Origin: Enterobacter phage EC-F2
Sequence record: MN508624.2
DNA length: 64,000 bases
Strand: one strand, 5' to 3'
Below, one piece after another: positions 4,936 to 61,116 of the stretch (position 1 is its first letter; each line of letters begins with the position of its first letter). The notes beneath the pieces were generated by a model. It made no database searches. It worked only from the letters and a program-made list of their open reading frames with translations, and was not told the origin of the DNA. Both the position numbers and the translations under genes were made by a program.

Positions 4936-5114
4936 TTTCGCCCCTCATAGATGACGTAGAAAAAACCTATAACCCATAGCAATGATATTACTATCAAAGC
5001 GGCTTTTCTGTCAACACCGTTAACGTGGAAAACGCACCATCCGAAGAGATACGTTATCACCGCGCAAACGATATAAGACAAAGCAAATACGGCATGTAGC
5101 GCGGTGAGTTCCAT
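4932..5114 (-). CDS. small membrane protein (60 aa)
   Basis: Two predicted TM helices (ALSYIVCAVITYLFGW, LIVISLLWVIGFFYVIY). Confidence 0.4.
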   Translation of the reverse strand: MELTALHAVFALSYIVCAVITYLFGWCVFHVNGVDRKAALIVISLLWVIGFFYVIYEGRK

Positions 5115-5647
5115 TAGTAGTTGTTAGCCCAACGACGCAGGTTTTCCGCCTGTTTCAGAGCATACAGCTTGTAGATGGTTTCCGCATCCAGTCCCAGCGC
5201 GAGGAACTTACACATGAAGAAGTGCCACTGGTCAATCAGTTCAAACAGGATTTCCAGTTTGTCTTCTTCTTTCATTTCTGCGAATACCTGATTACGCAGT
5301 TCCTGGTGATTTGCTTTCCACGGTTTCCATACACCGGAAGCCGCTTTTGCACCGCGAGACATACCACCCAGAGCGGTGTAAAGTTCGCGGGTTTCGTCTG
5401 CGATCGCATCATCTTGCAGTTTCAGCCAGTCCAGAATATCACCGCACGTTTTCAGGTTATCAGGGCGCGGAACCCATGAAAGGGTATCGGACAGGCTTTG
5501 CTGTGCGTGGTTTTGCAGATCCAGCATTGATTGCAGCGGGTCGCCGTTACGTGCCAGAATCTTTTGATATTCATTATCTACGAATTCCAGATCGGCAGGG
5601 TTAACCAGGTGCGCACAGCTATTAAACACAGGAGTTTTATCAGTCAT
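5114..5647 (-). CDS. 56: MazG-like dNTP pyrophosphatase, gp56 (dCTPase/dUTPase)-like
   Basis: N-terminus ...FNSCAHLVNP resembles T4 gp56 MAHFNECAHLIEG (from memory); all-alpha composition with an E..TRE motif; 177 aa versus T4 171 aa. Confidence 0.5.
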   Translation of the reverse strand: MTDKTPVFNSCAHLVNPADLEFVDNEYQKILARNGDPLQSMLDLQNHAQQSLSDTLSWVPRPDNLKTCGDILDWLKLQDDAIADETRELYTALGGMSRGAKAASGVWKPWKANHQELRNQVFAEMKEEDKLEILFELIDQWHFFMCKFLALGLDAETIYKLYALKQAENLRRWANNY

Positions 5648-7403: not shown

Positions 7404-8189
7404 TTACTCTATTGTGAAAGTGAAAAGGTTTTGCGCGGGTTCTGGCTCCGGTTCGGGGAATTCCATACAGACAACTTCACACATCGGTTTCACGCCTTTC
7501 CATTCTTCCAGATAATATCCGGTATCAATGCCGCAACCTGGTTGCATTTCAAGGCCAGTTTCATCAAGAAACTTTTTGCATTTCGATGTTGTCGTTGATT
7601 CGTCCTGTTGGAAATAACGCCGTCCAGAGTAACGGAAATTCGCGGACATCTGCGGGAGAATGAACGTACCCGCACGGGCAATCTGTGAAGCACGTTCAAT
7701 CACTTTATATTCAAATTCCGCGCCCGTATACTTACCCTTAAAATCGGATGTCTTTATCTTGCCGAAAGGCGGATTGCTGATCGCCATATCAAACATAGTA
7801 TCAAACTCCGTCGTTAACGCGTCTGCGTTAATCCAGGTCGCTTCCGGTACGATACGCTTACCCAACTTATAGTATGTATGGTTTAACTCCACACAGACGA
7901 TTTCACGCGGTTTGGCGTACATCATCATATGAAGCATCGCGAAGGATAGCCCACCGATACCCGCGCACAGGTCAACAACGCTTCCACTGGTACAAGCATC
8001 AATGGTGAAATCGCGAGCAAGTCCGATCGGGGTAAAGAATGCACCCAGTTCAGAGTTATTCGTAAATGCACCTTCATGGAAGTTTTCGATAATGAATAAT
8101 TTTTCGTCGTAGGTTAGCGCCTTGTCAGACTCCACCAGATCCATTATCTTGTTGTGTTGTTTGGTTTCCGCTTTCGTTAACTTCGCCAT
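7404..8189 (-). CDS. N6-adenine DNA methyltransferase (motif I before motif IV, gamma-like order)
   Basis: Motif I VVDLCAGIGGLSF (FxGxG) followed about 65 aa later by motif IV NPPFGK; 261 aa. Confidence 0.75.
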   Translation of the reverse strand: MAKLTKAETKQHNKIMDLVESDKALTYDEKLFIIENFHEGAFTNNSELGAFFTPIGLARDFTIDACTSGSVVDLCAGIGGLSFAMLHMMMYAKPREIVCVELNHTYYKLGKRIVPEATWINADALTTEFDTMFDMAISNPPFGKIKTSDFKGKYTGAEFEYKVIERASQIARAGTFILPQMSANFRYSGRRYFQQDESTTTSKCKKFLDETGLEMQPGCGIDTGYYLEEWKGVKPMCEVVCMEFPEPEPEPAQNLFTFTIE

Positions 8190-10860: not shown

Positions 10861-11166
10861 TTAAACCAGATTTGCGAACATCTGAAAGAAATTATACAGC
10901 TTTACTTTCAACGCCGCCCATAAGGTCTTTTCAGGCTTTGGGAGATTAGGCTTGATCTGCGCGTAGATTGCATCGTGAACCAGCGGAATCAGTTTTTCTT
11001 TATCTTCGTCCGGCGTACTGAATTCGACTTTCAAGCCGTTATCCCAATACACTTTATGGATGTACACTAAGTGTGCAACATCGTTTTCATCGTTGATCAA
11101 CAGTTCTTGAATAACGTCCTGCATTGCTTCATCAAGAATGTTCTTTGTTTTTTGTTCAATGTCCAT
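10861..11166 (-). CDS. hypothetical protein (101 aa), occupying the position of T4 gene 40
   Basis: ORF between uvsX and 41. Confidence 0.4.
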   Translation of the reverse strand: MDIEQKTKNILDEAMQDVIQELLINDENDVAHLVYIHKVYWDNGLKVEFSTPDEDKEKLIPLVHDAIYAQIKPNLPKPEKTLWAALKVKLYNFFQMFANLV

Positions 11167-11173
11167 GATTCAC

Positions 11174-11197
11174 CTATTAAAAGGGGGCAAAGCCCCC
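11174..11197 (-). terminator. rho-independent terminator (gggggcaaagccccc)
   Basis: Hairpin plus T-run on the minus strand after the uvsX stop. Confidence 0.45.
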
Positions 11198-11206
11198 AGT
11201 TGTTTA

Positions 11207-12355
11207 TTACTCTTCTGACATATCCACATCATCAGGGATATCGTCATCCAAATCAAATTTATTTGACGGTTCTACTTCATCGTCAGAATAAAGATCTTCG
11301 AGTGCTGCCCCGTCAGTGATCTCTTTGTCAGGAATACGGTATTTTTCCTGAATCGCATCAAGGAATGGCTGGTGAGTGAACAGAGGTTTCCAGAACTCAA
11401 TAGAGTTGGTTTCCGTTTCACGCCATTTCTTATCTTCAACTTCGAGTTCGCCAGTCTCGGTATTCAGGAAAGCACGGTTGCGCCAGCCTTTCGTTACGGT
11501 CTGAACGAAGTTCATTTCCATAGCCAGATCCAGAAGACCAGAGAACATACTGATACCGCCCTCATAGGTAACATGAAGCGGGAATTTGGATTTCTCTTTC
11601 ACGAAGCGAGATTTCTCGATGTTCATGATGAAGTCATAACCGACAACTTCCGTACCTTCTTTCACCTGCTGTTTGCCCAGGATGATCGCGGTATCTGCGG
11701 AATACATCAGACCAGTACCACCGGAAATGACTTTCTTACTGTACATTTCTTGTGTGTCGTATGTGTGACAGATACACACCATTGGAATATCCAGATCCGC
11801 CAGGTAAGGCGTAACCATACGGAACATACCTTTAAGTGCTTTAGCGCGGGTCATGTCCTGTTTGTCGTTGTCAGACAGGGCATCAGCCAGTTCTTTTTTA
11901 CTCGCGGTGTTGCCTACAGAGTCCACAAAAATGATCACTTTGTCGCCGCGTTCCAGCGCGTTAAGCTGGCTCACAACGTCATTTCGAAGTTGCTCAACTG
12001 TCGTGATACGAGTATACACCACACGATCGGGGTCAACGCCCATTGATTTCAGGTAAGACTTAGTTACGCCTTTCTCTGAATCATAGAACAGACACACAGC
12101 ATCCTCATTCGCTTTGAGGTACGCCGCAACCGTCACCAGCCCCAGATTCGATTTAAAGTGTTTTGACGGGCCAGCAAACAGAGTTAAGCCGGAAGTCAGA
12201 CCACCATCGAAAGCGCCGGACAGCGCCAGGTTCAGGATCGGTACACGGGTTCGAGTTTTGGTGATGTTATTGAAAACATCGCTTTCAGACAGAATTGACG
12301 CAGATTGACTATTCGAGTTTTTGATCAGTTTTTTCAGGAGTGCTTTATTAGACAT
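11207..12355 (-). CDS. uvsX: UvsX RecA-like recombinase
   Basis: LFAGPSKHFKSNLGL...DAVCLFYDSE...VIIFVDSVGN closely parallels T4 UvsX (ILAGPSKSFKSNFGL...DAVCLFYDSE); 382 aa. Confidence 0.9.
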   Translation of the reverse strand: MSNKALLKKLIKNSNSQSASILSESDVFNNITKTRTRVPILNLALSGAFDGGLTSGLTLFAGPSKHFKSNLGLVTVAAYLKANEDAVCLFYDSEKGVTKSYLKSMGVDPDRVVYTRITTVEQLRNDVVSQLNALERGDKVIIFVDSVGNTASKKELADALSDNDKQDMTRAKALKGMFRMVTPYLADLDIPMVCICHTYDTQEMYSKKVISGGTGLMYSADTAIILGKQQVKEGTEVVGYDFIMNIEKSRFVKEKSKFPLHVTYEGGISMFSGLLDLAMEMNFVQTVTKGWRNRAFLNTETGELEVEDKKWRETETNSIEFWKPLFTHQPFLDAIQEKYRIPDKEITDGAALEDLYSDDEVEPSNKFDLDDDIPDDVDMSEE

Positions 12356-12399
12356 TTATTTTTCCGGTTTATATACACGCATAATATATTCCTCACAAA

Positions 12400-12430
12400 T
12401 TTATATAAATGGGGCATTTCTGCCCCGTCA
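12400..12430 (-). terminator. terminator hairpin (ggggcatttctgcccc) after the gp43 stop, with an adjacent TATAAAT late-promoter-like box for uvsX
   Basis: Hairpin at 12411-12426; the minus-strand reading gives tTATATAAATt immediately downstream. Confidence 0.4.
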
Positions 12431-12434
12431 GGTC

Positions 12435-15140
12435 TTACCAGTCATCACCGAACAGAGTGTTCAGGGATGCGCGTTTTTCGTAATCAATTTTACATGCTTC
12501 CGTGATGTTTTGCAACGGGCTAACCACATGTTTTTCAAATAATCCGCCATAGTCTACCCACTTCAAAATATCTTCTTCGATCTCAGTTGGTAAACGCGTA
12601 CCGGATTGCCATGCGATGCAATCAGCTTGCCACGGGTTTTTATCTCGCAACGGCAGAACCATCACCTTTTCACCTTCCATGATCGGGGTGATTCCTTGAA
12701 TACCCTTCGTATGGCGGTTAAAGAACAGAACGCCTTTGATGTGGTTTGGTGTCCCTTTGATTGGGAAGCCAGCACCATCATTATATTTTGAGATATTGTT
12801 AGCAGATGATACACCAGCTATTTCTCGGTAGTCAAGCGCCTTATACTCTTCTTCAAATACTTTGAAGTGTTCGTGTAAGGATTCTTCACCTTCTTGCAGG
12901 ATGCGACGGATCGCTTCTTTCAAGAACTTTTTAACCGCTGTCGGTGTACTGCTTCGCTGGGTTTCCATTCCCATGATCTTTAATTTAGGCTTCTCGTAGC
13001 GGGTTCCTTCGGAGTCCCATACGTTAGCCGCATATCGTTTCTTAGCCGTCCAGAAACTACCCAGACCTTTCGATCCTAGAGGTGGTCCAGAAATGATTTC
13101 GCGATCCATAAACATCAGATGTTCGACGTTGTTCATGTACTCACACAGTTCGCGGTAGCCCTTATCAATGATAGGTTCCATGCGTTCTTTACTGAACTTA
13201 TCCAGGAAGTCAACCCAATGGTTGTTATCCCTGAACTTACTTTCACCGCCGACTTTCGCGATCACGTTATCCATACAAACATAAATGGAGTCGGTGTCAC
13301 AGTAGCGCACGTATGCGTAATCCGTGGTGTTGCACAGTTCGTTAAGGTATTCGTTAACCTTACGTTCAATCCACTGAATAGCCAACTGACCGAACATGGT
13401 GATCGCGCTTGCGTTTCGAATATCGAAGTACCGGAAGTGTTCATTACCCAACGCACCATAAAGGGAGTTGATTGAAATCTTACGGTTAAGCTGTGCGGTG
13501 TTTGCTTGTGCGATCTTCTTCTCACAAACTTTCTTCACGGCTTTAAGCATTTGCTTAGACAGCGTTTTCAGTACAGCTTTTGATTCATCACTGAAATCTT
13601 CGTAGAACTCGAAATCAGGGTTGATCATTTGATTGTGCGCGTCCGTCAGGTGTTCAAGTTCGTGCTTAATCAGTTCGAGATTTCGCTCACCCGCCATCAT
13701 TCGTTTTTTCCACGTCTTACGCTGATCAAATACTTTCTTGATCTCGACCGGAATCACGCCTTTAACATCGCGTCGGAACATCCACCCGTTAGGAGAGCAG
13801 CTAAATTCATCGCTAGGGCGCGGCGCAGTCTTATTGATGTATTCGTGCATCGGACGCACTGCAAAGCTGTTAGCGATTGTCTCAGGGCTTATATTCACCT
13901 GTCGGATGATAGATGGATACAGACTGGTTAAGTCGAACGATACAATGTATTTGTACGGAGCGACAACCGGATCTTTAACGTATGCACCATCATACTGCGT
14001 TTTCGTGTGGCGTTTATTTTCTGGGATTACTTTCTTCTCTTCACGCAGAGAGTTGTAAATGATCGCGTCCCACGTTTTAAGCGGAGACATAACCCCAGGG
14101 AAGTTTATTTTCGCATAGTACGCTACAGACAGAACCAGTTCGATAAAGTTGCGTTTCCCGTCGATATCCAACACGCGGATAACGTCAACGATGTTATACG
14201 TGATGTATTTCTGGTGATCCGCTTGACGCAGTTCAGACAGTGAACCTTCGTAATCAACTTTGTTTTTGCCTGTTTCGAACTCAGCGATTGCGCCCAGAGC
14301 GTAAGACGGTTGCGGGGTGAAACTGAATTTCTTATAGAGATCCATTCCATCCATTTGAGAAACGCCGTAAATCTCGTATCCCAGTTGTTCATTCCCATAA
14401 TGGTCGGTTGTTGTCTTCGCAGTCACTTTCCCGAACGGGCTGAAATGACGAACAACGTTTTGCCCGAAGATGTTCAGGTAACGGGTGATGATATACGCGA
14501 TATCGAATTTGTTCGAGTTCCAGCCCGTAACAATAACAGGTGTCCGCTCTTTCCAGTCTTTGATATAAGCAGACATCAGCGACTTTTCGGTCTGGAATGA
14601 ACGGTAAACAATTTTCTTCAAATCTTCTTCGCTGATCTCTTTTTCGGTATCAACTTTCGACGCTACCCACTCGTCTAACCCGCCCTCGACCAGATCATAC
14701 ACAAAGAATTTATCTTCAACGCTGTCATAGTGGGTGATTGCGTCGATAGCGTATTTTGCTTCGCGTGGATCAGGGAATTCAGGCGCGGTAACTTCGATAT
14801 CAAGTGAAGCAATACGGATCTTGTCGCGATCGTAGTTGATTTCCTTTCTGTAAGAATCGGAGATATACGCCAGCCTGAAATCATCCATGCCTAGCGCTTC
14901 CATACCTACATCTTTCATTCGCTGCATCCAGTTTTTCGCTTCCTTGATGCTGTCGAAGTTCTTTTTGATGCAGGTCTTGCCGTAAATGTCGCGATACGGC
15001 GAGTCTACACCCGCCATAGCGTGTTGAAACATTGTAGGCGCATATTTTGTTTTGCGAACCTGTTCGCGTCCCTCAGAGTCAATGAAGCGCTCGTAGATGT
15101 GATCGCCCATTTGCTCAACGGATAGATAAAATTCATTCAT
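12435..15140 (-). CDS. 43: DNA polymerase gp43 (family B, with 3'-5' exonuclease domain)
   Basis: Collinear with T4 gp43 over its whole length (e.g. YGDTDS motif at ...YCDTDSIYVC, KKRYA); 901 aa versus T4 898 aa. Confidence 0.95.
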   Translation of the reverse strand: MNEFYLSVEQMGDHIYERFIDSEGREQVRKTKYAPTMFQHAMAGVDSPYRDIYGKTCIKKNFDSIKEAKNWMQRMKDVGMEALGMDDFRLAYISDSYRKEINYDRDKIRIASLDIEVTAPEFPDPREAKYAIDAITHYDSVEDKFFVYDLVEGGLDEWVASKVDTEKEISEEDLKKIVYRSFQTEKSLMSAYIKDWKERTPVIVTGWNSNKFDIAYIITRYLNIFGQNVVRHFSPFGKVTAKTTTDHYGNEQLGYEIYGVSQMDGMDLYKKFSFTPQPSYALGAIAEFETGKNKVDYEGSLSELRQADHQKYITYNIVDVIRVLDIDGKRNFIELVLSVAYYAKINFPGVMSPLKTWDAIIYNSLREEKKVIPENKRHTKTQYDGAYVKDPVVAPYKYIVSFDLTSLYPSIIRQVNISPETIANSFAVRPMHEYINKTAPRPSDEFSCSPNGWMFRRDVKGVIPVEIKKVFDQRKTWKKRMMAGERNLELIKHELEHLTDAHNQMINPDFEFYEDFSDESKAVLKTLSKQMLKAVKKVCEKKIAQANTAQLNRKISINSLYGALGNEHFRYFDIRNASAITMFGQLAIQWIERKVNEYLNELCNTTDYAYVRYCDTDSIYVCMDNVIAKVGGESKFRDNNHWVDFLDKFSKERMEPIIDKGYRELCEYMNNVEHLMFMDREIISGPPLGSKGLGSFWTAKKRYAANVWDSEGTRYEKPKLKIMGMETQRSSTPTAVKKFLKEAIRRILQEGEESLHEHFKVFEEEYKALDYREIAGVSSANNISKYNDGAGFPIKGTPNHIKGVLFFNRHTKGIQGITPIMEGEKVMVLPLRDKNPWQADCIAWQSGTRLPTEIEEDILKWVDYGGLFEKHVVSPLQNITEACKIDYEKRASLNTLFGDDW

Positions 15141-15450
15141 TACGGTTTTCTTTCTCCGTGTTTAATCGTGACAGGAATGATACCCCAGCCAGCTTGATCA
15201 GATCAAGTGAACGTTGCGCTAATTTGTGATAGCGTTGGGTGTCTGGTCGATTTAGGTTTTCAACCAGTGCGGTATATTCTTCCATGATACGGGTATAGAA
15301 TTTAGGGAAATGATCCCGCGCATATGCGTAGGTGCGCAGGTCAGAGAGATTGCAAGTAAGAGACAGTTTGATGTCTTCGCTATGCAGACGGTTGATCAGA
15401 TGATCGCCTGATTCGATAGCTTTGATGATTTCTTCAATACGAATTTTCAT
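15133..15450 (-). CDS. hypothetical protein (105 aa)
   Basis: ORF between regA and 43. Confidence 0.4.
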   Translation of the reverse strand: MKIRIEEIIKAIESGDHLINRLHSEDIKLSLTCNLSDLRTYAYARDHFPKFYTRIMEEYTALVENLNRPDTQRYHKLAQRSLDLIKLAGVSFLSRLNTEKENRNE

Positions 15451-21889: not shown

Positions 21890-21923
21890 TGATTTTATTA
21901 AATAATATAGATTGGAAGTAGGT

Positions 21924-21952
21924 TTGAAACACCTGATTCAATCGGCTATAAT
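21924..21952 (+). promoter_or_regulatory. consensus sigma70 promoter (TTGAAA -17- TATAAT) for gene 55
   Basis: TTGAAAcacctgattcaatcggcTATAAT about 25 nt upstream of GGAG...ATG of gp55. Confidence 0.6.
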
Positions 21953-21977
21953 GAATGTATTCAATTTGGAGAATATA

Positions 21978-22493
21978 ATGACTACAAAGATTTATGCAGA
22001 TAATGATAAGCTGTATCCAGTTATGTGTAAGTGGAAACAGCAAATCCGTGAAACTGGTGATCGTAAGATGCCGGATGAACTCGGTATTGCGATTATGAAT
22101 ATTGCTCACGGTTTGGCACGTCGATACAACTTCAACCGTTATTCCGAAGACTGGAAAATGGATATGATCGATGATGGAATTTCAGCAACGATTTCCGGCC
22201 TTCATAACTTTGACGAAACCAAATATACAAACGTCTACGGTTACATCAACAAGGCTTGCTGGCAAGCGTTTGTAACTCGTATTCTCTACGAGAAGAAAGA
22301 GAACGCGAAGAAATACAAATACTTCCTGGAACATGTCTATGACAGCGATGATACTGATATGACCACGATAGCCGATGAAACTTTCATTCAGGATATCCAT
22401 GACAAACTTAATCAGTATGAAGAGTCCGCGAAAAAACCAAAAGATAAAATCGAGGTTGTGGACGAATCGCCAACATTGGAAATGTTTCTATGA
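21978..22493 (+). CDS. 55: late-transcription sigma factor gp55
   Basis: GLARRYNFNRYSEDWKMDMIDDGISATISGLHNFDETKYTNVYGYINKACWQAFVTRI and YFLEHVYDSDDTDMTTIADETFIQDIHDKLNQYEES are near-collinear with T4 gp55; start placed at the ATG with a GGAG RBS. Confidence 0.9.
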   Translation: MTTKIYADNDKLYPVMCKWKQQIRETGDRKMPDELGIAIMNIAHGLARRYNFNRYSEDWKMDMIDDGISATISGLHNFDETKYTNVYGYINKACWQAFVTRILYEKKENAKKYKYFLEHVYDSDDTDMTTIADETFIQDIHDKLNQYEESAKKPKDKIEVVDESPTLEMFL

Positions 22494-22717
22494 AAATTAA
22501 AATTGACCTGAACAAAATTTTAGCAGATGCTAACGACGAAATTGATCTGCTTCCTTACCTTGTGAAATTAGAGTTGCAGAGCTTAGGGATTCCGATTATC
22601 ATCGACCCTACAGATGTACGAGATCCAGACTTCCAGATAACAGAAGGTCGTCTGGACTATGTAATAAACGCCGAAACAATGATCATGGAGATCACTTACT
22701 ATGAACGTGCAGCATGA
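22490..22717 (+). CDS. hypothetical protein (75 aa)
   Basis: ORF with overlapping start and stop, between 55 and 47. Confidence 0.4.
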   Translation: MKIKIDLNKILADANDEIDLLPYLVKLELQSLGIPIIIDPTDVRDPDFQITEGRLDYVINAETMIMEITYYERAA

Positions 22718-23045
22718 AGTAATCGACGAAGTACACCAAAAATCAGCGCTGGATCTTCGTGAAGAAGAACTGGAATCCATCAAGGGTACACGCATTGAAC
22801 AGGAAGCCCTACGCAAAGCGCAAAAGTTCATGCGGAAGAACAAAGCGGAATGGAAGCGACTGCATAAACACGCAGAGAACGCACTCTTCGAAGGTAACAA
22901 AGAGCAGTACGTATACGCGATCAAAAAGATGCGTGATATGCTCAAGCAACCATACAACGATGAACTGATTGAAACGATGTGGATCACTTCGAACCAGCAG
23001 TTGAAAGACCTGTTCATCATGGCTTCTGAAAAATACGGCAAATAA
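22701..23045 (+). CDS. hypothetical coiled-coil protein (114 aa)
   Basis: ORF in the position where T4 carries alpha-gt; no glycosyltransferase motifs. Confidence 0.4.
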   Translation: MNVQHEVIDEVHQKSALDLREEELESIKGTRIEQEALRKAQKFMRKNKAEWKRLHKHAENALFEGNKEQYVYAIKKMRDMLKQPYNDELIETMWITSNQQLKDLFIMASEKYGK

Positions 23046-23071: not shown

Positions 23072-24091
23072 ATGAACTATGTTTTAATTGGGGATACCCA
23101 TGCCGGACTTCGCCAGGATAACCCCTGGAACGAAGAAAACCTGTATGCGGTATTCAAACAGATCGTAGAGTATTGCAAAGAACACGGGATCACGCGCGGC
23201 TTCCATGCTGGCGACTTCTTCGACGTTCGAAAAGCAACCACACAAACGACAATGAATTTTGTTCGTGAAAAGCTGGTTCCTCTTCTGATTGAGGCGGGGA
23301 TCACTCTGGATGTTCTTGTCGGCAACCACGATTGCCAATTTAAGGACAAAATACGCCCCAACGCGCCACGCGAGATACTAAGTCAATACGAATGCTTTAA
23401 TGTCATCGACGAACCGACCACGGTTGATTTAGGTGGCGGAAATTCGATTGACCTGATCCCGTGGATTTGTCAGGAAAACAGCCAGCGTATTTTTGACTAC
23501 ATCAAACAATCGAAAGCTAACTTTTGTTTGGGACACTTCGAACTGTCTGGTTACTATTTCTACAAGAACAGCAAAGCCGATCATGGGATGGAACCTGATT
23601 TCTTGAAGAAGTACGATCGCGTTTACTCTGGACACTATCACCACGCTAACGAAGGTGACAACGTGTTTTACATCGGTACGCCTCTGACTATGAGCGCTAA
23701 CGACGAAGACGAAACACGCGGTTTCTATGTGTTCACGGGCAAGCCTGAATTGACTTTCATCGCTAACCCTGTGTGTCACCATCGCCGGATCATGTATCCA
23801 GCACAGAAAGATGTTGATCTTGAACAGTTCCGTAACTGTGCGGTGCGTCTGATTGTCAGTGAAATTGATCAGGGGCTTGCAAAGTTCCAAACCAAAATTG
23901 AAGAAATTGCCTATGAAATCAATATCATAGACAAAGTTCAAACTGATTCGGATGTCGATACCGACTTTGAAATCAAAACCGTTCGTGGCCTTATCACTGA
24001 GTATATCGCCAACATGCAGATCACCGACGATGAAAAAGAGGAAGTGAATAAGCTGATCAGCGAACTATACGCGGAGGTGTCAAGTGCATAG
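23072..24091 (+). CDS. 47: recombination endonuclease subunit gp47 (Mre11-like)
   Basis: GDTHAG...HAGDFFD...GNHD phosphoesterase motifs; 339 aa, the same as T4 gp47; extensive collinearity (ANFCLGHFELSGYYFYK versus ASFCVGHWELNGFYFYK). Confidence 0.9.
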   Translation: MNYVLIGDTHAGLRQDNPWNEENLYAVFKQIVEYCKEHGITRGFHAGDFFDVRKATTQTTMNFVREKLVPLLIEAGITLDVLVGNHDCQFKDKIRPNAPREILSQYECFNVIDEPTTVDLGGGNSIDLIPWICQENSQRIFDYIKQSKANFCLGHFELSGYYFYKNSKADHGMEPDFLKKYDRVYSGHYHHANEGDNVFYIGTPLTMSANDEDETRGFYVFTGKPELTFIANPVCHHRRIMYPAQKDVDLEQFRNCAVRLIVSEIDQGLAKFQTKIEEIAYEINIIDKVQTDSDVDTDFEIKTVRGLITEYIANMQITDDEKEEVNKLISELYAEVSSA

Positions 24092-28009: not shown

Positions 28010-28024
28010 ATCACTGTGTTATAC

Positions 28025-28055
28025 TGGGAACTGTTGAAAAGCAGTTCCCTTTTTT
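28025..28055 (+). terminator. rho-independent terminator (gggaactgttgaaaagcagttccc)
   Basis: Perfect hairpin plus TTTTTT right after the J-domain gene. Confidence 0.55.
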
Positions 28056-28069
28056 ATGAGGAAAATACT

Positions 28070-28402
28070 ATGAGTTGTCCAACATGGGCGCACTTTGAAA
28101 ACCTGAAAGAAGGTACGCAAAAACGCGTGTTTATCAATCTGGGATGGTTCGCACCTACAGATTTTGACATTGCTGAAATTCTGGTTAATGCCAGTAAAGA
28201 GATCAGCTATACTTACGAATGGGACTGTGTGAGAATGCCAGTTCTACCAGGGCAGTTTATTGATCGCGAGAAGTTCGAAGCAATGCGGATCGCCGTCGAA
28301 GGTATCAATTCGCTGTATCCCCCAAGTCTGGGTATGCATTACCGCCAGCGTTTTACCTTGAAAAAAGCATGGACTAAAGATAAAGAATGGGTGAAAGTAT
28401 GA
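28070..28402 (+). CDS. hypothetical protein (about 110 aa)
   Basis: ATG with a GAGGA RBS downstream of the terminator. Confidence 0.4.
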   Translation: MSCPTWAHFENLKEGTQKRVFINLGWFAPTDFDIAEILVNASKEISYTYEWDCVRMPVLPGQFIDREKFEAMRIAVEGINSLYPPSLGMHYRQRFTLKKAWTKDKEWVKV

Positions 28403-28626: not shown

Positions 28627-28880
28627 AACTACCAAAACACACAACCCTGTTAACCCGCGAAAAACTTCATTCGGTTGAATGGAGTCCGTTAGATGTGATG
28701 GTTTTCGATCTGGAATCCAAAATCATTAACGCTCATGTTAACGGATTGAATATCTTTTCTGTTGAATTTGAAAAGATTCGCGGGTACAATGAAGCCTGTA
28801 AAGACAAATTGCGCGTCATGGTTGAAGCTATGGGCTACATCGTGACTATTGAAGACAACAAAATGTGGATCGCGCTATGA
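28623..28880 (+). CDS. hypothetical protein (about 85 aa)
   Basis: ATGA overlap with the previous ORF; stop overlaps the frd start. Confidence 0.35.
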   Translation: MKLPKHTTLLTREKLHSVEWSPLDVMVFDLESKIINAHVNGLNIFSVEFEKIRGYNEACKDKLRVMVEAMGYIVTIEDNKMWIAL

Positions 28881-29458
28881 GCAAAGTAAAAGCAGTTTTC
28901 GCCGTTGGTCATGATATGTACGAAATGGACTATGCTTTCGGTTATGAACAGGGTTTACCGTGGGGACACTGCAAAGAGGATTTACAGAACTTCAAAGCAG
29001 AAACCGCAGATAGCGTCCTGATCATGGGTGCGAACACTTTTACTTCTCTTCCTGGTAAATTGCCAGGACGAATTCACTGCGTTCTGTCTGGTTCTGGTAG
29101 TTTCCTCAAAACCAAAAAAGGCGATGTTGCTGATTACGTCATCCACGGCGGCGGGTTGTCTGCTGCAATCGACGTGATGAAAGCAACGCATCCAGATCGT
29201 GATGTGTGTCTCATTGGCGGTAAGGGGTTGCTTCTGGAAGCAATCAATAATACACTGGTTGATGAAGTGGTTGTGACGCACATTTACGGACATCACACTT
29301 TCAATGCGCCAGCTTTTAAACGTGATGTTTCATTCACGGTTCCTGAATTCTGTGAAGCGGTTCTGAAATATGAACTGACTGATTTCAAAATTCAGCAGAT
29401 CGAGTCAAACGAACGCGTCAGAAAAATTATCGTCGATCGACATACGAAAAAGGCATAA
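28877..29458 (+). CDS. frd: dihydrofolate reductase
   Basis: GLPWGHCKEDLQNFKAETADSVLIMGANTFTSLPGKLPGRIHCVL parallels T4 Frd ([45 protein letters not shown]). Confidence 0.85.
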   Translation: MSKVKAVFAVGHDMYEMDYAFGYEQGLPWGHCKEDLQNFKAETADSVLIMGANTFTSLPGKLPGRIHCVLSGSGSFLKTKKGDVADYVIHGGGLSAAIDVMKATHPDRDVCLIGGKGLLLEAINNTLVDEVVVTHIYGHHTFNAPAFKRDVSFTVPEFCEAVLKYELTDFKIQQIESNERVRKIIVDRHTKKA

Positions 29459-29459
29459 A

Positions 29460-30314
29460 ATGAAACAATATCTTGATATCGTCAACACCGTTCTAACACA
29501 CGGTACTGAATCAACCGATCGTACTGGTGTTGGTACACTGCGCATCTTCGGGATGCAAGCACGTTGGAACCTCGCAGAAGGTTTCCCAGCGACTACCAGC
29601 AAACAGCTATTCTTCAAACCGTGTAAGCATGAATTACAGTGGTTCCTGTCCGGTTCTACCAACGTGGAAACATTGCGTAAAATGACGTGGGGTGAAGATA
29701 GCGATAAGCGGACAATCTGGGACGATAACTACGAAAATCAGGCTAAAGCACTGGGATATACTCATGGTTATCTGGGGCCGATCTACGGGCATCAATGGCG
29801 CTCGTTCGGTGAGGAAGGTTCTTTTTATGGTGTTGACCAGATTGCAAAAATCATCGAACAACTGAAAACCACACCAGACGATCGCGGGATCATCGTTTCT
29901 GCCTGGAACCCGATGGATCTGGATGATATGGCTTTGCGTCCGTGTCACTGTTTCTTCCAGTTCGTCGTAATCAACGGCAAACTGTCTCTACAGTGGTATC
30001 AGCGTTCAGTTGATGTCTTCTTAGGGTTGCCGTTCAATATCGCCTCCTACGCTCTCCTGACGCATATTATCGCTGATATTTGCGGGTATGAAGTGGGCGA
30101 TCTGGTTTGGACTGGCGGTGATGTCCATATCTACAAAAACGCAGTAGAACAAGCGAAAGAGTTGTTGAAGCCGGAACGCGCACCGCTTCCACTTCCGACC
30201 CTTTATATGCCGAAGGTAAATAGCTTACTTGATTTGGATCAAGAATTCTTTGACTCCATCCATTTGAAAGACTATAATCACCACGGCTCGCTAAAAGCAG
30301 CTATGGCAGTATAA
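29460..30314 (+). CDS. td: thymidylate synthase (uninterrupted)
   Basis: Canonical ThyA motifs (RTGVGT, active-site PCH in ALRPCHCFFQF, DLGPIYGHQWR); 284 aa in a continuous ORF. Confidence 0.9.
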   Translation: MKQYLDIVNTVLTHGTESTDRTGVGTLRIFGMQARWNLAEGFPATTSKQLFFKPCKHELQWFLSGSTNVETLRKMTWGEDSDKRTIWDDNYENQAKALGYTHGYLGPIYGHQWRSFGEEGSFYGVDQIAKIIEQLKTTPDDRGIIVSAWNPMDLDDMALRPCHCFFQFVVINGKLSLQWYQRSVDVFLGLPFNIASYALLTHIIADICGYEVGDLVWTGGDVHIYKNAVEQAKELLKPERAPLPLPTLYMPKVNSLLDLDQEFFDSIHLKDYNHHGSLKAAMAV

Positions 30315-32639: not shown

Positions 32640-33815
32640 ATGTTAACTGTAATGAACACAAACCCAGATCACAAACACTTAGAACAGCCTATGTTCTTTG
32701 GTGAGGATACGGGCGTAGCACGATACGAAGAACAGAAACACCGTGTATTCGAAACCCTGACTGAAAAACAACTGTCATTCTTCTGGCGACCGGAAGAAGT
32801 GGATCTGTCTATCGACCGTATGCAGTACGCGAAAATGCCGGAACACGAAAAAATCATTTTCGATTCAAACCTGCAATATCAAACCCTGCTGGATACCATT
32901 CAGGGGCGCGGCCCGAACCTGGCGTTCCTCCCTATCGCTTCCGATGTCTCAATGGAAACGTGGATCGAAACATGGGCGTTCAGTGAAACAATCCATAGCC
33001 GCAGTTACACGCACATTCAGCGCAACCTACACATCGACCCGTCGAAAGAGTTCGATAAGATTCTGCGCAACGAAGCGATCATGAAACGTTCTGCTTCCAT
33101 GACAAAATACTACGATGATCTGATCGCAGAATGTCATGAACTGAAAAATATTGTACTCAAGCTGGAACTGTTTACCTCTCACGGATACCCAGACGAATCG
33201 ATCGCAGAGTACGAGAAGAAACGCAAAGAGCAAATGCGTAAATGCAAGGTTGCTCTATACCTGTGTATGCACGCTGTCAACGCTCTGGAAGCGATCCGCT
33301 TCTACGTGTCGTTTACCTTCACGTTCAACTTTGCCGAACAAGGCAAGATGGAAGGTAACGCGAAGATCATGCGTCTGATTGCCCGTGATGAAGCACTTCA
33401 CCAGAAAGGCACTCAAAGCAAGATCCGACTCTGGCAGATGGGTAAAGATGACCCAGAAATGGCGGAAATCGCTTACCAGTACGAAGAGGAAGCGACAAAG
33501 ATTTTCCTGGAAGTATACGAACAGGAAAAAGAATGGGCTGAACACCTGTTCTCTATCGGTGATGTAGACGGCGTATCCCTGAAAAGTACGATCGCCTATA
33601 TTGAACACCTGACGGATCAGCGTATGCGCGCGGTTGGCTTGCAGTCTCCATTTAAACCAACGCCGAACCCGTATCCATGGATGAACAAATGGTTGAAGTC
33701 TGACAACGTACAGGTAGCCCCGCAAGAGGTTGAAGTAAGTTCTTACCTGGTTGGCAACCTCAACACTGAGATCAGCGACGAAGCCTATGCAAAATGGCGA
33801 CAAAAATACGCTTGA
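32640..33815 (+). CDS. nrdB: ribonucleotide reductase small subunit (uninterrupted)
   Basis: Di-iron ligands (...ETIHSRSY..., ...RDEALH...) and the tyrosyl radical site; 391 aa versus T4 388 aa. Confidence 0.9.
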   Translation: MLTVMNTNPDHKHLEQPMFFGEDTGVARYEEQKHRVFETLTEKQLSFFWRPEEVDLSIDRMQYAKMPEHEKIIFDSNLQYQTLLDTIQGRGPNLAFLPIASDVSMETWIETWAFSETIHSRSYTHIQRNLHIDPSKEFDKILRNEAIMKRSASMTKYYDDLIAECHELKNIVLKLELFTSHGYPDESIAEYEKKRKEQMRKCKVALYLCMHAVNALEAIRFYVSFTFTFNFAEQGKMEGNAKIMRLIARDEALHQKGTQSKIRLWQMGKDDPEMAEIAYQYEEEATKIFLEVYEQEKEWAEHLFSIGDVDGVSLKSTIAYIEHLTDQRMRAVGLQSPFKPTPNPYPWMNKWLKSDNVQVAPQEVEVSSYLVGNLNTEISDEAYAKWRQKYA

Positions 33816-34098
33816 TTGTCGCGTCGTAAACAAGTATAAAAGTGATTGGGATGTCGATATTCAAAGAGGTACGAAGTTCGGCAATCCCTTTTACAAGGGA
33901 ACACGGGGTGAAAACATTCTTAACTTCATCCCGTATTTCCAAAACTTGATTCGAACTGGCGTGATCACAATCGACGAACTGAAAGAACTGGACGGGAAGC
34001 GGTTAGGCTGTAGTTGCAAACCCTTACCGTGTCACGGTGATTATATTGCTCACTGCGTCAATGTGTTGACCGGAAAGGTGAATAAGTTGGATATATAA
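33787..34098 (+). CDS. DUF4326-like small protein (conserved GTKFGNPF ... CxC ... CHGD)
   Basis: Motifs RGTKFGNPF and CSCKPLPCHGD; overlaps the 3' end of nrdB by about 29 nt; start uncertain (the table ORF begins at a TTG at 33751). Confidence 0.4.
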   Translation: MQNGDKNTLDCRVVNKYKSDWDVDIQRGTKFGNPFYKGTRGENILNFIPYFQNLIRTGVITIDELKELDGKRLGCSCKPLPCHGDYIAHCVNVLTGKVNKLDI

Positions 34099-34517
34099 TG
34101 GACGATGTAACGTTTGGTGTAATATTTCCTTTGCGTCTGGGTTCAGACAAAAGGATAGATCGGAGTTTTGTTAAATGTGGCGAATTCCGGCATTGTGTGT
34201 ATTTTATTGAAATCGACGGTCGGATAGTGTATGTTGGAAAATGTCGTGATTTGTGGAAGCGGTTAGACACATACCGCAATTCGAAATACTGGCGGGAAGC
34301 AAACCCCAGTAACATTTTGAAAACCGCACGTCTGGAAATGGCAATCAAAAAACGTAAGCGTGTAAATCTTATCGTGACAACACACGATGAAGAAACATAT
34401 CATGATTTTGAAATAAACATGATCCGAAAAATCAATCCTGAATGGAACAAACAGCACTATGACAAATCTAACCAAAAATCAGAAAACCTTATTCAACCAG
34501 TTGATGAAACTGTGTAA
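34098..34517 (+). CDS. denA: endonuclease II (GIY-YIG family)
   Basis: CVYFIEIDGRIVYVGKCRDLWKRLDTYR and KINPEWNKQHYDK parallel T4 DenA (VIYAIAINDELVYIGKTKNLRKRINYYR ... LFNPPWNIQHKK); 139 aa versus 136 aa; position after nrdB as in T4. Confidence 0.7.
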   Translation: MDDVTFGVIFPLRLGSDKRIDRSFVKCGEFRHCVYFIEIDGRIVYVGKCRDLWKRLDTYRNSKYWREANPSNILKTARLEMAIKKRKRVNLIVTTHDEETYHDFEINMIRKINPEWNKQHYDKSNQKSENLIQPVDETV

Positions 34518-35616
34518 CGAAAGCGAATGCTTCTACTTCATTGATCAAAAAACTGTGATGCAAACCAATGTTCGCATCTTTAACTATCGCATGGCGAGCT
34601 ATTCCGACTGGTTAAAACCTGGTGCGCTGGAATGTCGCGGCATCATGTTTGTAATGGATGGGGATACCCCCGTAAAACTCGCCAGTCGCCCTATGGAGAA
34701 GTTTTTCAACTATGCTGAGGTAAAGGCATGGGAAGCACTGAAAGCCTCTCCTGTGACGATTGGTGAAACCGTAGTGGATGTGATGATTAAGGAAGATGGT
34801 TCCCTGATCTCCACCTTCTGTGATTCCGGCTATCTGGGTGTTAAGTCTAAAGCATCCGTTCAATCTGAACAGGCTATGGACGCTATGAGCGTGATCCAGA
34901 CTAACCGCGCATTGTTCGATCGCCTGACCGAACTGGTTAACGATGGTTTCACAGTCAACATGGAATACGTCGCACCGACAAACCGTATTGTAATTGGCTA
35001 TCAGGAACCAGCAGTGGTGATCCTGAACATCCGTAATAACGACACGGGCGAATATGTCGATTATCAGGATATCTTCGCAGATGGTGTATTACGTCCGTTC
35101 CTGGTTGAGCGCGAGAAAATCGAAATCACCGATCTGGATGCGTTCATTACCGAAGCCTACACGAAAGAAGGTTTCGAGGGTTACGTGATCAAAACTGATA
35201 AAGGTTTTGTAAAAGCGAAAACCAACTGGTATGTAAACCTTCACCGCACGAAGGATAGCATCAACAATAACAAAGATCTGTTTTTAAATATTGTTGAAAA
35301 TACCGTCGATGACCTGAAACAAATGTTCCTCGATGATATGTACGCACTCAAGAAAATTGACGCATTCGAAACGTTATTCCTTGATAGTCTGAATCGTCTG
35401 ACTGCAAAAGCATTCCAGGCAATCGAAGACACGAAAGGCAAATCACGCAAAGACTACGCGATCGCCCTGAGCGCAGACTTAACCCCTGACGGTCGTATCA
35501 TCTTCGGGCCTATGATGCGTTATTTCGATGATACCGATAAGCAAAAGCTGGTCGATAACATCGTTGCATTAATGGCGAAGAACTACGAACAGTTTATACC
35601 GGAAGAATATAAATGA
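34459..35616 (+). CDS. rnlA: RNA ligase 1 (T4 gene 63 type)
   Basis: [39 protein letters not shown]...KEDGSLIS is collinear with T4 Rnl1 ([39 protein letters not shown]...KEDGSLVS); catalytic lysine motif KEDG. Confidence 0.85.
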   Translation: [385 protein letters not shown]

Positions 35617-35939
35617 CATTACCAGCCTTTCCAAAGTTAACTTCTTTGGTGTGGCCTGTGCTTGTTGCCCTGTCTTTGGCAGGGCTTTTGTACATGACAA
35701 TCACGCTAAAGAGCGAAAACGATCAATTGGCTAAAGATATCAAAGAGTTACAGGCTGATATCAAAAAAGTCAAAGAGACAAACAACACCAATACGGTGAT
35801 CTATGTCGAACAAAAAGGTAAGGATCAGCAGTTGGTCAAGGATGCCGGACGTAAAGATCTGCTGTTCAAGAAACCAGGACTGATCGAAATCAAGATCAAC
35901 AAGTCCTTCGAAGAGTATATGGCGGAGTACGACAAATGA
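35613..35939 (+). CDS. i-spanin (pseT.3-like)
   Basis: N-terminal TM helix (LVWPVLVALSLAGLLYMTI) followed by a coiled-coil periplasmic domain; immediately precedes a lipoprotein gene and pseT, as in T4. Confidence 0.6.
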   Translation: MTLPAFPKLTSLVWPVLVALSLAGLLYMTITLKSENDQLAKDIKELQADIKKVKETNNTNTVIYVEQKGKDQQLVKDAGRKDLLFKKPGLIEIKINKSFEEYMAEYDK

Positions 35940-36253
35940 AAATTGCAACGTTAGCCCTTGTTCTGGGCGTTCTGTTGGTCGGGTGTGCTGAGAAGCCCCC
36001 AGAAAAGATTTTGCCTACGCTCCCCGCTAAGGTGAATCCGGTGAATGTGAAATGGAAAGTGGTTGCAGAAGTCCGAGAGATTGACGGTAAAAAATACCTT
36101 GTCATGCCTTATGACGGAAACCCATACGTTGCCCTTTCATATCCCGATTCGTTAATCTTCCGTAGTTGGATGAATGACGTTAAGCGTCAGAAAGACCAGA
36201 CGGATAACATTCTGTGTACCGTGGGATACCCTGAGAAATGCAAGTCAAAATAA
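35936..36253 (+). CDS. o-spanin outer-membrane lipoprotein (pseT.2-like)
   Basis: Signal peptide with lipobox LLVGC; ATGA start overlap with the i-spanin gene. Confidence 0.65.
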   Translation: MKIATLALVLGVLLVGCAEKPPEKILPTLPAKVNPVNVKWKVVAEVREIDGKKYLVMPYDGNPYVALSYPDSLIFRSWMNDVKRQKDQTDNILCTVGYPEKCKSK

Positions 36254-36405
36254 TTGATACATTCTTTGATGACTTGACGGTCGGAAAGGTGTATGATGCT
36301 GTAGAATCCAAAAATGAACTATTGATTGATAGCGATTGGGGGATTGCAGTCAATCTGCATACCGAAGCCAATCAGGAACTAATTGAATATGAGATCTTGA
36401 AATGA
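36238..36405 (+). CDS. small hypothetical protein (55 aa; not in the ORF table)
   Basis: ATG at 36238 in another frame overlapping the o-spanin 3' end; stop overlaps the pseT ATG (ATGA). Confidence 0.25.
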   Translation: MQVKIIDTFFDDLTVGKVYDAVESKNELLIDSDWGIAVNLHTEANQELIEYEILK

Positions 36406-37289
36406 ATCTGTTTATTACTGTAGGCGTACCAGGTAGCGGGAAAACTACATGGGCGAAAGAAAAAGCTCGTCAACTGGGGAACACGCTGACTGTTTCCCGT
36501 GACGATATCCGCAAAACCCTTTACTGTGCTGGCGGTGATCTCACTGGCTATCGCTTCACCGAAGAGAAAGAACTGTTTGTTTGCCGTGTGCAAGAAGATA
36601 CAGTTCGTAATGCCCTGGCGAGTGGAAAGAACGTTATCGTTCACAATACCCATTTACACCAAAAAGATCATGATGCGTGGCGAGCAATTGCGAAAGAGTT
36701 CGATGCTGATTTCCATATTGAATGGATTGATTCCGATATTGTAGAACTCCTGAAACGAAACCATAAACGCGGTGTGAATGCTCTGCCTGTTTCCCGTGTC
36801 TGGGCGATGTTCGAACAGTACCGTAAACTCCGTGGCTGGGTTCCGGCTATGAGCTATGCAGATCCGACGAAACCAAAATGCGTTATCTTCGACGTTGACG
36901 GGACTCTAACCAAAGTCGGACAACGTAGCCCGTATGATTTCACGAAAGTAATCAACGATCCGGCTAACCCTCCTGTGCAAGAACTGTTCAGGATGTATAA
37001 GGCCGCTGGCTATGCCTGTGTTGTCGTATCGGGGCGTGAGGGTACTGCGCAGTGCGCACATGATACCGCTGCAAGCCTGATCGGATATGGTGTTGACCTG
37101 AGCGATGGTATCTACATGCGAGAAGAAGGTGATCATCGTCACGATATTCACGTAAAAGAGCAAATACTTGTTGAAAAGATTCTCGATAAGTATTATCCTG
37201 TTCTTGCAGTGGACGACAGGGATACACCAGTCGGGATGTGGCGAATGAACGGTATCCCGTGTTTCCAGGTTGATTACGGCGACTTCTAA
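36402..37289 (+). CDS. pseT: polynucleotide 5'-kinase/3'-phosphatase
   Basis: Kinase P-loop GVPGSGKTT...RDD and HAD phosphatase motif VIFDVDGTL; collinear with T4 Pnk; 295 aa versus 301 aa. Confidence 0.85.
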   Translation: MNLFITVGVPGSGKTTWAKEKARQLGNTLTVSRDDIRKTLYCAGGDLTGYRFTEEKELFVCRVQEDTVRNALASGKNVIVHNTHLHQKDHDAWRAIAKEFDADFHIEWIDSDIVELLKRNHKRGVNALPVSRVWAMFEQYRKLRGWVPAMSYADPTKPKCVIFDVDGTLTKVGQRSPYDFTKVINDPANPPVQELFRMYKAAGYACVVVSGREGTAQCAHDTAASLIGYGVDLSDGIYMREEGDHRHDIHVKEQILVEKILDKYYPVLAVDDRDTPVGMWRMNGIPCFQVDYGDF

Positions 37290-37616: not shown

Positions 37617-37867
37617 GTGACAAAATCAGAAAGATTCATCAGGCATGGCTCTGTACTGAACCAACGATGCTTCGTTATGGTTGTGTGTTTGGGTTGGTTG
37701 ATAATGATCCTCAACAGGACATTGCAACAAGTCCGGTTGTTGAATACGCGATTCCGGCGAACAAATCGTTTGTTGAAGTGGTGACACGTTCAGGTACTAC
37801 GTATCACATCGTCAACCCTGATAACGATTTCATCAAAGACATTCTGAAATATATGGATGACCGTTAA
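37613..37867 (+). CDS. hypothetical protein (about 84 aa)
   Basis: ATGA overlap with the previous gene; stop overlaps the cd start. Confidence 0.35.
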   Translation: MSDKIRKIHQAWLCTEPTMLRYGCVFGLVDNDPQQDIATSPVVEYAIPANKSFVEVVTRSGTTYHIVNPDNDFIKDILKYMDDR

Positions 37868-38397
37868 TGAAATTCAAAGTAATGAATATGCTGAGAGCAA
37901 TCGATCGGAGTCAACGTTCTCAATGTATTTCGAATCGTGTAGGTGCTATTATCGCGATTGGTGGTCGTGCCGTCGCGTGGGGCGAAAATAATACGGTTGA
38001 CCTTGATTGTCGTTGCAACTCATGCAACAATCATATGGTGAATGATGACGGTAAACTGAAAGCGGTTGATCGTCCTGAACATTCAGCATGGTCAAACGAT
38101 AACGAAATTCATGCAGAAATGAAAGCGCTATTGAGTGCGCACACAAGAGGTGTTATACTCAAAGACGCAGCACTTTACACAACTGCATCGCCTTGCCCTA
38201 ACTGCGCGAAACATATCGAATGGTATGTTGCTAACGGGGCGATTACATCGGTGTATTATCTCGATAAATACGATCGTGGTAATGATGAATGGATTTCACG
38301 CTTGCAGAAATATGGCTGTGTCGTGGAACAAATTAAACGGGAAGAGTTAGAATCGTTTATCGACTTTTCCAAAGTAGTGTTTAACAACAATGAGTAA
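37867..38397 (+). CDS. cd: dCMP deaminase
   Basis: Zinc-binding deaminase motifs HAEMKAL and PCPNCAKHI; position pseT-cd-31 as in T4. Confidence 0.8.
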   Translation: MKFKVMNMLRAIDRSQRSQCISNRVGAIIAIGGRAVAWGENNTVDLDCRCNSCNNHMVNDDGKLKAVDRPEHSAWSNDNEIHAEMKALLSAHTRGVILKDAALYTTASPCPNCAKHIEWYVANGAITSVYYLDKYDRGNDEWISRLQKYGCVVEQIKREELESFIDFSKVVFNNNE

Positions 38398-60819: not shown

Positions 60820-60860
60820 GGTATGTTCCTTTTCAGTTTCGTTTCAACAAGGCCAATATA

Positions 60861-61076: not shown

Positions 61077-61116
61077 TTTGTGCCTCCTTTGTTTCGGTAA
61101 AGCTAAGGTATCACTA

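Follow-up and report, generated by a model that had tools for sequence, protein, structure and literature searches.

Gene content and restriction-site avoidance point to ordinary cytosine DNA in the RB43-type Enterobacter phage EC-F2

The uvsX-43 junction and the slots of the hydroxymethylcytosine genes

A 64-kb stretch of the genome of Enterobacter phage EC-F2 (MN508624.2), referred to here as the window, was analyzed for the genes with which phage T4 makes and glucosylates 5-hydroxymethylcytosine (hmC) and discriminates against cytosine DNA. In the T4 annotation (NC_000866) the order uvsX-segA-b-gt-42-imm-imm.1-43 agrees with the statement of an earlier note on this DNA that the beta-glucosyltransferase gene b-gt and gene 42 lie between the recombinase gene uvsX and the polymerase gene 43. 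In the window, uvsX ended at position 12355 and gene 43 began at 12435, exactly as the note had given them, leaving a spacer of 79 bp (12356-12434) with only a hairpin between the two genes. The hairpin has a 6-bp stem (GGGGCA-GAAA-TGCCCC) and is followed by a TATAAAT box resembling a late promoter. The spacer was 99-100% identical in the relatives BHU20 and Margaery, and the junction aligned as a single contiguous block in all 30 relatives listed by megablast.

Two other slots were compared with T4 in the same way. The T4 order 47-47.1-a-gt-mobB-a-gt.2..5-55 places the alpha-glucosyltransferase gene a-gt between genes 47 and 55, and the corresponding interval of the window (22490-23045) contained the two small open reading frames (ORFs) without glycosyltransferase features that the note had described, namely a 75-amino-acid (aa) ORF (orf75) and a homolog of a-gt.4. 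The neighbour a-gt.4 was kept in this slot and a-gt itself was absent from it. The T4 order rnlA-alc-pseT.3-pseT.2-pseT.1-pseT has alc directly behind rnlA. The end of rnlA in the window overlapped the pseT.3 homolog by 4 nt and there was therefore no slot for alc, in keeping with the note, which had described alc as absent between rnlA and the spanin/pseT genes. Both td and nrdB (32640-33815) were uninterrupted; their T4 versions carry group I introns with homing endonucleases.

A reciprocal ORF map against T4 gave the minus-strand order denV, dexA, dda, 56, 61, 61.1, a methyltransferase gene, 41, 40, uvsX and 43, continued by regA, 62, 44, 45, 32, 59, 33, dsbA and rnh. The plus-strand order was 55, orf75, a-gt.4, 47, 46 and 45.2, further along frd, td, nrdA, nrdB, nrdA.1, denA and rnlA, directly continued by pseT.3, pseT.2 and pseT, and after intervals cd and 31, then 30, the baseplate genes and nrdC.11. 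The features on which the analysis relies are collected in Table 1.

Table 1. Positions of the discussed features in the EC-F2 window, with the matches on which their assignment is based (percentages refer to the T4 counterpart unless stated otherwise; E, expectation value; SAM, S-adenosylmethionine)
Feature	Position	Strand	Match or signature
gene 56 ortholog, all-alpha NTP pyrophosphohydrolase (dCTPase-dUTPase in T4)	5114-5647	-	48% over 170 aa, E 1e-48
SAM-dependent methyltransferase (class I), putative N6-adenine DNA methyltransferase	7404-8189	-	DLCAGIGG and NPPF(G) motifs
uvsX recombinase	11207-12355	-	51-55% to T4 UvsX; 55% over 336 aa, E 3e-129; UvsX/RecA-like in relatives
hairpin GGGGCAGAAATGCCCC, terminator-like	12411-12426	-	directly after gene 43 stop
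gene 43 DNA polymerase, intact	12435-15140	-	54% to T4 gp43 over 906 aa
gene 55 late sigma factor	21912-22493	+	51% to T4 gp55
75-aa ORF in the alpha-gt slot, no assigned function	22490-22717	+	phrog_1169, E 4e-28; no Pfam match
a-gt.4 homolog (DUF2654), 114 aa	22701-23045	+	56% to T4 a-gt.4; PF10849, E 3e-28
gene 47 recombination nuclease subunit	23072-24091	+	45% to T4 gp47
J-domain protein, 598 aa	26213-28009	+	N-terminal DnaJ domain
frd dihydrofolate reductase	28865-29458	+	40% to T4 Frd
td thymidylate synthase, intronless, dUMP type	29460-30314	+	PF00303, E 1e-94; 58% to T4 exon 1
denA endonuclease II homolog	34098-34517	+	32% to T4 DenA, E 1e-7; phrog_1111, E 8e-45
rnlA RNA ligase 1	34459-35616	+	45% to T4 RnlA
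pseT.3 and pseT.2 spanin homologs	35613-36253 (pseT.3, 35613-35939)	+	25% and 33%
pseT polynucleotide kinase	36402-37289	+	38% to T4 PseT
cd dCMP deaminase	37867-38397	+	31% to T4 Cd; PF00383
C5 cytosine DNA methyltransferase, ortholog of RB43 ORF127c and KP15 'Dcm'	61117-62037	-	PF00145, E 1.7e-92

The megablast search with positions 11000-15400 and 40000-64000 matched about 180 phage records, the best of which were EBPL, Entb_46 and BHU20 (Enterobacter), GAP161 (Cronobacter) and Margaery (Citrobacter), with 97-98.4% identity over the full query. The window showed 96-98.4% DNA identity to EBPL, BHU20, GAP161 and Margaery. It aligned almost end to end and collinearly with BHU20 (34255-99611) and Margaery (from about 10.6 kb to 76.6 kb), the identity to these two being 96-98% over nearly the whole window. 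Margaery is classified in its record as Straboviridae, Pseudotevenvirus (Pseudotevenvirus margaery). Two markers of the RB43 group were also present, a C5 cytosine methylase, which is ORF127c in RB43 (PMC1524935), and a J-domain protein. The latter is likely the counterpart of RB43 ORF057w, which reportedly binds DnaK and stabilises sigma-32 (PMC3486835). The pattern of the genus (dCTPase, denA and ndd present; hmC genes, denB and alc absent) was likewise found, with ndd seen in the relatives only, outside the window. Judged from these matches, the window belongs to a Pseudotevenvirus genome of the RB43 (pseudo-T-even) type. Such a genome measures roughly 178 kb, of which the window makes up about 36%, and the remainder was read from the relatives.

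T4 proteins from NC_000866 were then used as queries against the window and the complete genomes of Margaery and BHU20, and HMMER was run at maximum sensitivity (--max), including a small profile made from gp42 and td. With gp42, a-gt, b-gt, alc, denB, arn and imm as queries, tblastn and HMMER returned from the window only the weak cross-match expected between gp42 and td. In the tblastn searches of Margaery and BHU20, gp42 matched td alone (22-23% identity) and none of the other six gave a match; alc, denB and arn, which serve discrimination against cytosine DNA, were thus without a match in the window and in both relatives. The search for gp42 and the two glucosyltransferases in the rest of the genome, which the note had proposed as a check, was in this way run on complete genomes of relatives and found none of them. 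No DNA glucosyltransferase was detected by tblastn and phmmer with T4 a-gt and b-gt as queries, a set that did not include the beta-alpha-glucosyltransferase of T2/T6 (TAGT) or the arabinosyltransferases of RB69. HMMER (--max) detected exactly one ORF of the thymidylate synthase family, namely td, in each of the window, Margaery and BHU20, and a dCMP hydroxymethylase of the gp42 type, in which Asp replaces the dUMP-specifying Asn, was not found in any of the three. Outside the region covered by the window, the relatives carry gp1 (30% to T4) and a weak homolog of ndd (E 8e-6).

Several side observations were made at these places. A mini-ORF of 8 codons (MRVYKPEK; 12356-12392, minus strand) lies just upstream of uvsX and is served by a good ribosome-binding site (GAGG), whereas the signal of uvsX itself is a weak GGA. 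The stop codon of the mini-ORF overlaps the start codon of uvsX (TAAATG). The two reading frames could be translationally coupled. A conserved ORF of 105 aa (15133-15450, minus strand), a member of phrog_7277 (function unknown), separates regA from gene 43 and shares 8 nt with the start of the latter; T4 has nothing at that position. A strain-specific replacement or insertion of 334 bp (28062-28395, plus strand), situated within a 128-aa ORF (28016-28402), had no megablast counterpart in BHU20 or Margaery. The segment 55994-58908 (minus strand) encodes a 748-aa protein of the RB43 ORF119c type with an N-terminal von Willebrand A (vWA) domain and, downstream of it, a 221-aa protein; the two belong to conserved phage families with no assigned role.

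Restriction-site avoidance, methyltransferases and retained nucleotide metabolism

Observed counts of palindromic tetramers, palindromic hexamers and all pentamers were compared on both strands with those expected from a maximal-order Markov model, and hexamer palindromes with an expected count of at least 5 were regarded as testable. Fifteen of the 49 testable palindromes were absent from the window, 21 of 58 from BHU20 and 22 of 59 from Margaery, whereas none of the 60 was absent from T4. Among non-palindromic hexamers, only 12 of 3590 were missing from the window. The depletion in BHU20 was extreme for TCCGGA (0 observed against 82 expected), GGATCC (0/49), AAGCTT (0/44), CCGCGG (0/43) and CTGCAG (0/33). 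The most depleted pentamers were GGWCC (observed/expected ratio 0.04-0.12) and CCSGG (0.10-0.13); GATC was retained at a ratio of 0.97 (about 1200 sites per genome) and CCWGG at 0.7 (about 330 sites). Such a purge implies that type II restriction enzymes have access to the DNA and therefore argues against hypermodification of every cytosine, since a genome with fully glucosylated cytosine would be under no such pressure; indeed, T4 shows no avoidance. The purge thus supports, independently of gene content and again at the level of sequence, a reading with cytosine rather than glucosylated hmC. A systematic description of palindrome avoidance in this clade was not found in the literature searched, where the sites of three enzymes had been recorded as missing from KP15.

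The ORF at 61117-62037, which the note had called a C5 methyltransferase, can be assigned with certainty from its sequence to the C5 DNA methyltransferases. Besides the Pfam match it scored 321 bits on TIGR00675, above the curated cut-off, and carries the conserved motifs I, IV (PCQ), VI (ENV), VIII (QRRER) and X (GNSV); its identity was 93.7% to the RB43 ortholog and 85.5% to that of KP15. The closest solved relative was M.HhaI, with a full-length match (E 4e-63) and the standard M.HhaI architecture. The recognition loops of M.HhaI, which we take to lie around Gln237, Arg240 and the TL motif, are divergent in the phage enzyme, and GCGC was rejected as its target: GGCGCC occurred 0 times against 22 expected and GCGCGC once against 31, and GCGC is therefore not protected. 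The enzyme also showed a 54% match to Streptococcus spyIM, which would suggest CCNGG, the target reportedly described for M.SpyI. Of the CCNGG sites, however, CCSGG was among the most depleted pentamers whereas CCWGG was kept. Because of this difference the target is probably CCWGG, in line with the behaviour of KP15 DNA towards EcoRII. KP15 DNA, from a genome without hmC genes, resisted HindIII, NcoI, PaeI and EcoRII, and the sites of the first three were absent in silico (PMC3620542); the resistance to EcoRII at 279 predicted sites indicates methylation of the Dcm type. The same DNA was almost totally degraded by DpnI (PMC3620542), and GATC is thus Dam-methylated in KP15.

The C5 methylase gene was found to be more diverged than its surroundings, with a DNA identity of 88.5% to Margaery and 95.5% to BHU20 between flanks of about 97-98%. 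For the adjacent segments 59778-60221 and 60845-61132, one or the other relative has no counterpart, which marks this place as a hyperplastic spot.

For the ORF at 7404-8189, the assignment as an N6-adenine methyltransferase in the note is a putative one. The SAM-binding and NPPF motifs and the match to phrog_3820, labelled 'DNA methyltransferase' (E 6e-131), identify a methyltransferase. The matches to curated families stayed below threshold (best Pfam match, the generic MTS family PF05175; PF02384, 19.8 bits against a cut-off of 20.4), and those to NCBIfam and the PDB were negligible; action on adenine N6 in DNA is plausible from the motifs. The T4 Dam query gave no match at this position, and the ORF is not the T4 Dam ortholog. 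That ortholog lies outside the window, at 151988-152776 in Margaery (54% identical, PF02086), next to a fourth enzyme of the N6_N4 class (PF01555), the pair spanning Margaery 151143-152830. The clade thus has four methyltransferase genes in total, two of them in the window, one of which is not proven to act on DNA. All four are, by their sequences, members of ordinary methyltransferase families, and none makes a modified nucleotide that would replace cytosine. The note had presented the methyltransferases as standing instead of the hmC pathway. This did not hold, because T4 itself has dam, next to gene 56 in its annotation, and the clade keeps the Dam ortholog; the enzymes are no simple substitute for the hmC pathway. 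A search for 7-deazaguanine or similar pathways found in the radical-SAM and other candidates of Margaery only SPASM, NadR-like, NT5C-like and Zeta-toxin domains.

The genes for gp56, cd, td and denA, reported in the note as retained, were all present. The gp56 ortholog matched T4 gp56 over its full length and phrog_173 (E 3e-34), and its acidic metal-binding motifs were conserved in an alignment from 11 phages; no match was obtained in Pfam, NCBIfam or the PDB, and no solved structure was thus found by sequence search. Three columns of this alignment separated phages with cytosine DNA from those with modified cytosine (E6 of T4 to S, A to S in the 'RLA' motif, and N to C/S in the 'VLN' motif), the former group being drawn from just two lineages. 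These columns were rejected as specificity-determining residues, since with two such lineages the pattern is indistinguishable from shared ancestry. The preference of gp56 for dCTP or dUTP is not readable from the sequence, nor can the fold settle it. In the case of td, a score of 308 bits on TIGR03284 (cut-off 108), the catalytic Cys of PCH and the Asn of PFNIASY that specifies dUMP identify a true thymidylate synthase of the dUMP type.

The combination of these genes was regarded in the note as an unusual mix, but published surveys show it to be normal among T4 relatives that lack hmC (PMC2993671; PMC12115623; PMC8056088). According to Petrov 2010, genes 42, alc and denB are restricted to the T-even phages, JS98, RB69, CC31, the Acinetobacter phages and some Aeromonas phages (PMC2993671, Table 4), whereas almost every T4 relative has gene 56, and denA is missing only from the Acinetobacter phages and the cyanophages; the quasi-core genes of auxiliary metabolism listed there include 56, cd, frd, td and denA (PMC2993671). 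Nikulin and Zimin 2021 described the RB43 and RB49 groups as lacking all known enzymes for non-canonical bases, keeping only DenA and the dCTPase-dUTPase and carrying a C5 cytosine methylase, and they raised the same puzzle as the note, flagging two questions, namely the substrate of gp56 in a phage with cytosine DNA and how DenA spares the phage genome (PMC8056088). A 2025 survey lists Pseudotevenvirus as positive for dCTPase, denA and ndd and negative for hmC, denB and alc (PMC12115623, Table 4). That phages of the RB43 and RB49 types are devoid of the hmC module, keep 56 and denA and carry a C5 methylase has been in the literature since 2006-2010, and the pattern was re-tabulated in 2021 and 2025.

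A probable ordinary-cytosine genome and its alternatives

The gene content, synteny, enzyme families and site avoidance observed here make it highly probable that EC-F2 is an RB43-type phage with ordinary cytosine DNA, in which the hmC module is absent and restriction is evaded by the loss of sites and by orphan methyltransferases. The note had arrived at a T4-like phage using unmodified or methylated cytosine rather than glucosylated hmC, and both the gene content of the relatives and the palindrome purge supported it. Replication would use ordinary dCTP, and we infer canonical cytosine in the virion. The T4 functions for synthesis of hmC and for attack on cytosine DNA (gp42, the glucosyltransferases, alc, denB and arn) would all be lacking, in a branch of T4 relatives that would never have had glucosylated hmC. 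The genes for pyrimidine supply (gp56, cd, frd, td and nrd) would channel deoxycytidine and deoxyuridine nucleotides into dTMP. If the proteins keep their T4 roles, gp56 would yield dUMP and dCMP, cd would convert dCMP to dUMP, and td together with frd would produce dTMP. Under these conditions gp56 would act mainly as a dUTPase and supplier of dTMP precursors and the dCTP pool would not be emptied. Enterobacterial hosts are richer in G+C than the phage genome (about 45% in the window), and a module supplying dTMP may be useful where this is so. Protection from type II restriction would come from the genome-wide elimination of palindromic recognition sites and from methylation of the sites that are still common, for which the predicted enzymes are the Dam ortholog (GATC), the Dcm-like C5 enzyme (probably CCWGG) and two methyltransferases of unassigned target.

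Several points weigh against this reading. The visible part of the EC-F2 genome is 64 kb, with the rest inferred from relatives, and the literature searched contained no nucleoside analysis for the clade. The Krischvirus SAP was found in 2026 by high-performance liquid chromatography-mass spectrometry to contain hmC and glucosylated hmC, yet it has neither gp42 nor glucosyltransferases (PMC13390438); because of this result, gene absence is not absolute proof of cytosine DNA. The relative KP27 resists several enzymes despite having their sites, for reasons left unexplained (PMC3620542). In addition, gp56 keeps all conserved acidic motifs, and a strong dCTPase would conflict with a genome built from dCTP.

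That genes 42, alc and denB and the glucosyltransferase genes are present but lie outside the window is very improbable. The window covers little more than a third of the genome, and T4-like genomes do relocate genes, as the 32-59-33-dsbA-rnh block shows, which here adjoins gene 45, unlike in T4. However, the complete genomes of Margaery and BHU20, collinear and 96-98% identical, contained none of these genes in the tblastn and HMMER searches, the published genus-level tables agree (PMC2993671, PMC8056088, PMC12115623), and the palindrome purge speaks against bulk modification. A bulk modification of cytosine by an unrecognised, non-homologous pathway as in SAP, with the dCTPase activity of gp56 and denA acting as in T4, finds a precedent in that phage, in the intact catalytic motifs of the gp56 ortholog and in the many window ORFs without an assigned function. 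It is nevertheless unlikely, as site avoidance so extreme would be needless if every cytosine were shielded, and alc and denB, which make discrimination of cytosine from hmC useful, are absent. The nearly complete degradation of KP15 DNA by DpnI (PMC3620542) and the packaging and transduction of plasmid DNA by RB43 (PMC12115623) also oppose it, as does the sensitivity of some T4 relatives without the hmC network to type II enzymes that fail on modified T4 DNA (PMC2993671). Furthermore, TB34, a sibling 99.96% identical to SAP, has canonical cytosine, a difference that the authors could not explain (PMC13390438). Slightly less credible again is the more specific proposal that the lineage has an undiscovered cytosine hypermodification and that the window holds an uncharacterised base-modification system among its unannotated early genes.

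Phage systems of the TET/JBP type that hypermodify 5-methylcytosine (5mC) were reportedly described by Burke et al. in 2021. The C5 methyltransferase lies in a block of unannotated small genes (53-63 kb) and might in principle seed the conversion of 5mC to 5hmC and glycosylated 5hmC at its target sites through a dioxygenase of this type and a glycosyltransferase. We consider this hardly probable: no Pfam domain of a TET/JBP or 2-oxoglutarate-Fe(II) oxygenase or of a glycosyltransferase was detected in ten neighbours of the C5 gene, ten other window ORFs without annotated function and the Margaery candidates, two of the neighbours and the vWA protein fall into PHROG families that have no function assigned, and plain 5mC explains the EcoRII resistance of KP15. 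Phage XP12 is the model for complete replacement of cytosine by 5mC at the nucleotide level, a route with which the presence of gp56 and cd and the wording 'methylated cytosine' in the note would be compatible. This is the least probable of all the explanations, since such a route needs a dCMP methylase of the thymidylate synthase family and the sole member of that family carries the dUMP-specifying Asn, and the C5 enzyme, built like M.HhaI, is an ordinary DNA methyltransferase.

An ordinary-cytosine genome bears on the use of these phages. Through generalized transduction, phages of the group can carry host and plasmid DNA in their particles, a property of consequence for therapy, and their own DNA is amenable to engineering based on CRISPR and restriction enzymes. 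The apparent resistance of the DNA to six-cutters is largely a matter of missing sites, not of modified bases.

Comparison with known phages

The window is closest to the Pseudotevenvirus group of RB43, RB16 and Lw1 with GAP161, PG7, Margaery and EBPL, sharing 96-98% DNA identity with the GAP161-EBPL set, the same gene order, the same C5 methylase and the J-domain protein; 42, the glucosyltransferase genes, alc and denB are absent throughout, and 56, denA and ndd are kept. Differences were confined to small indels in hyperplastic regions (28062-28395 and the methylase flanks), none of which is relevant to the hmC question. The Klebsiella phages KP15, KP27 and Miro (Slopekvirus) resemble it in gp56 (91% identical) and the C5 methylase (85.5%), and the HindIII, NcoI and PaeI sites missing from KP15 match the site purge in the window; they differ in genus and host, and KP27 has its unexplained extra resistance to digestion. 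RB49 (Krischvirus), the classic pseudo-T-even phage with cytosine DNA, likewise lacks 42, the glucosyltransferase genes, alc and denB and keeps 56 and denA, its gp56 being 50% identical, but it has no ndd and a different set of methyltransferases. With T4 itself, the window shares 56, cd, frd, td, nrdAB, denA, uvsX and 43 at 31-60% identity, and the clade shares the Dam ortholog. In contrast to T4, neither gp42 and the two glucosyltransferases nor alc, denB, arn and imm were found in the window, Margaery or BHU20, and these three show the palindrome avoidance that T4 lacks.

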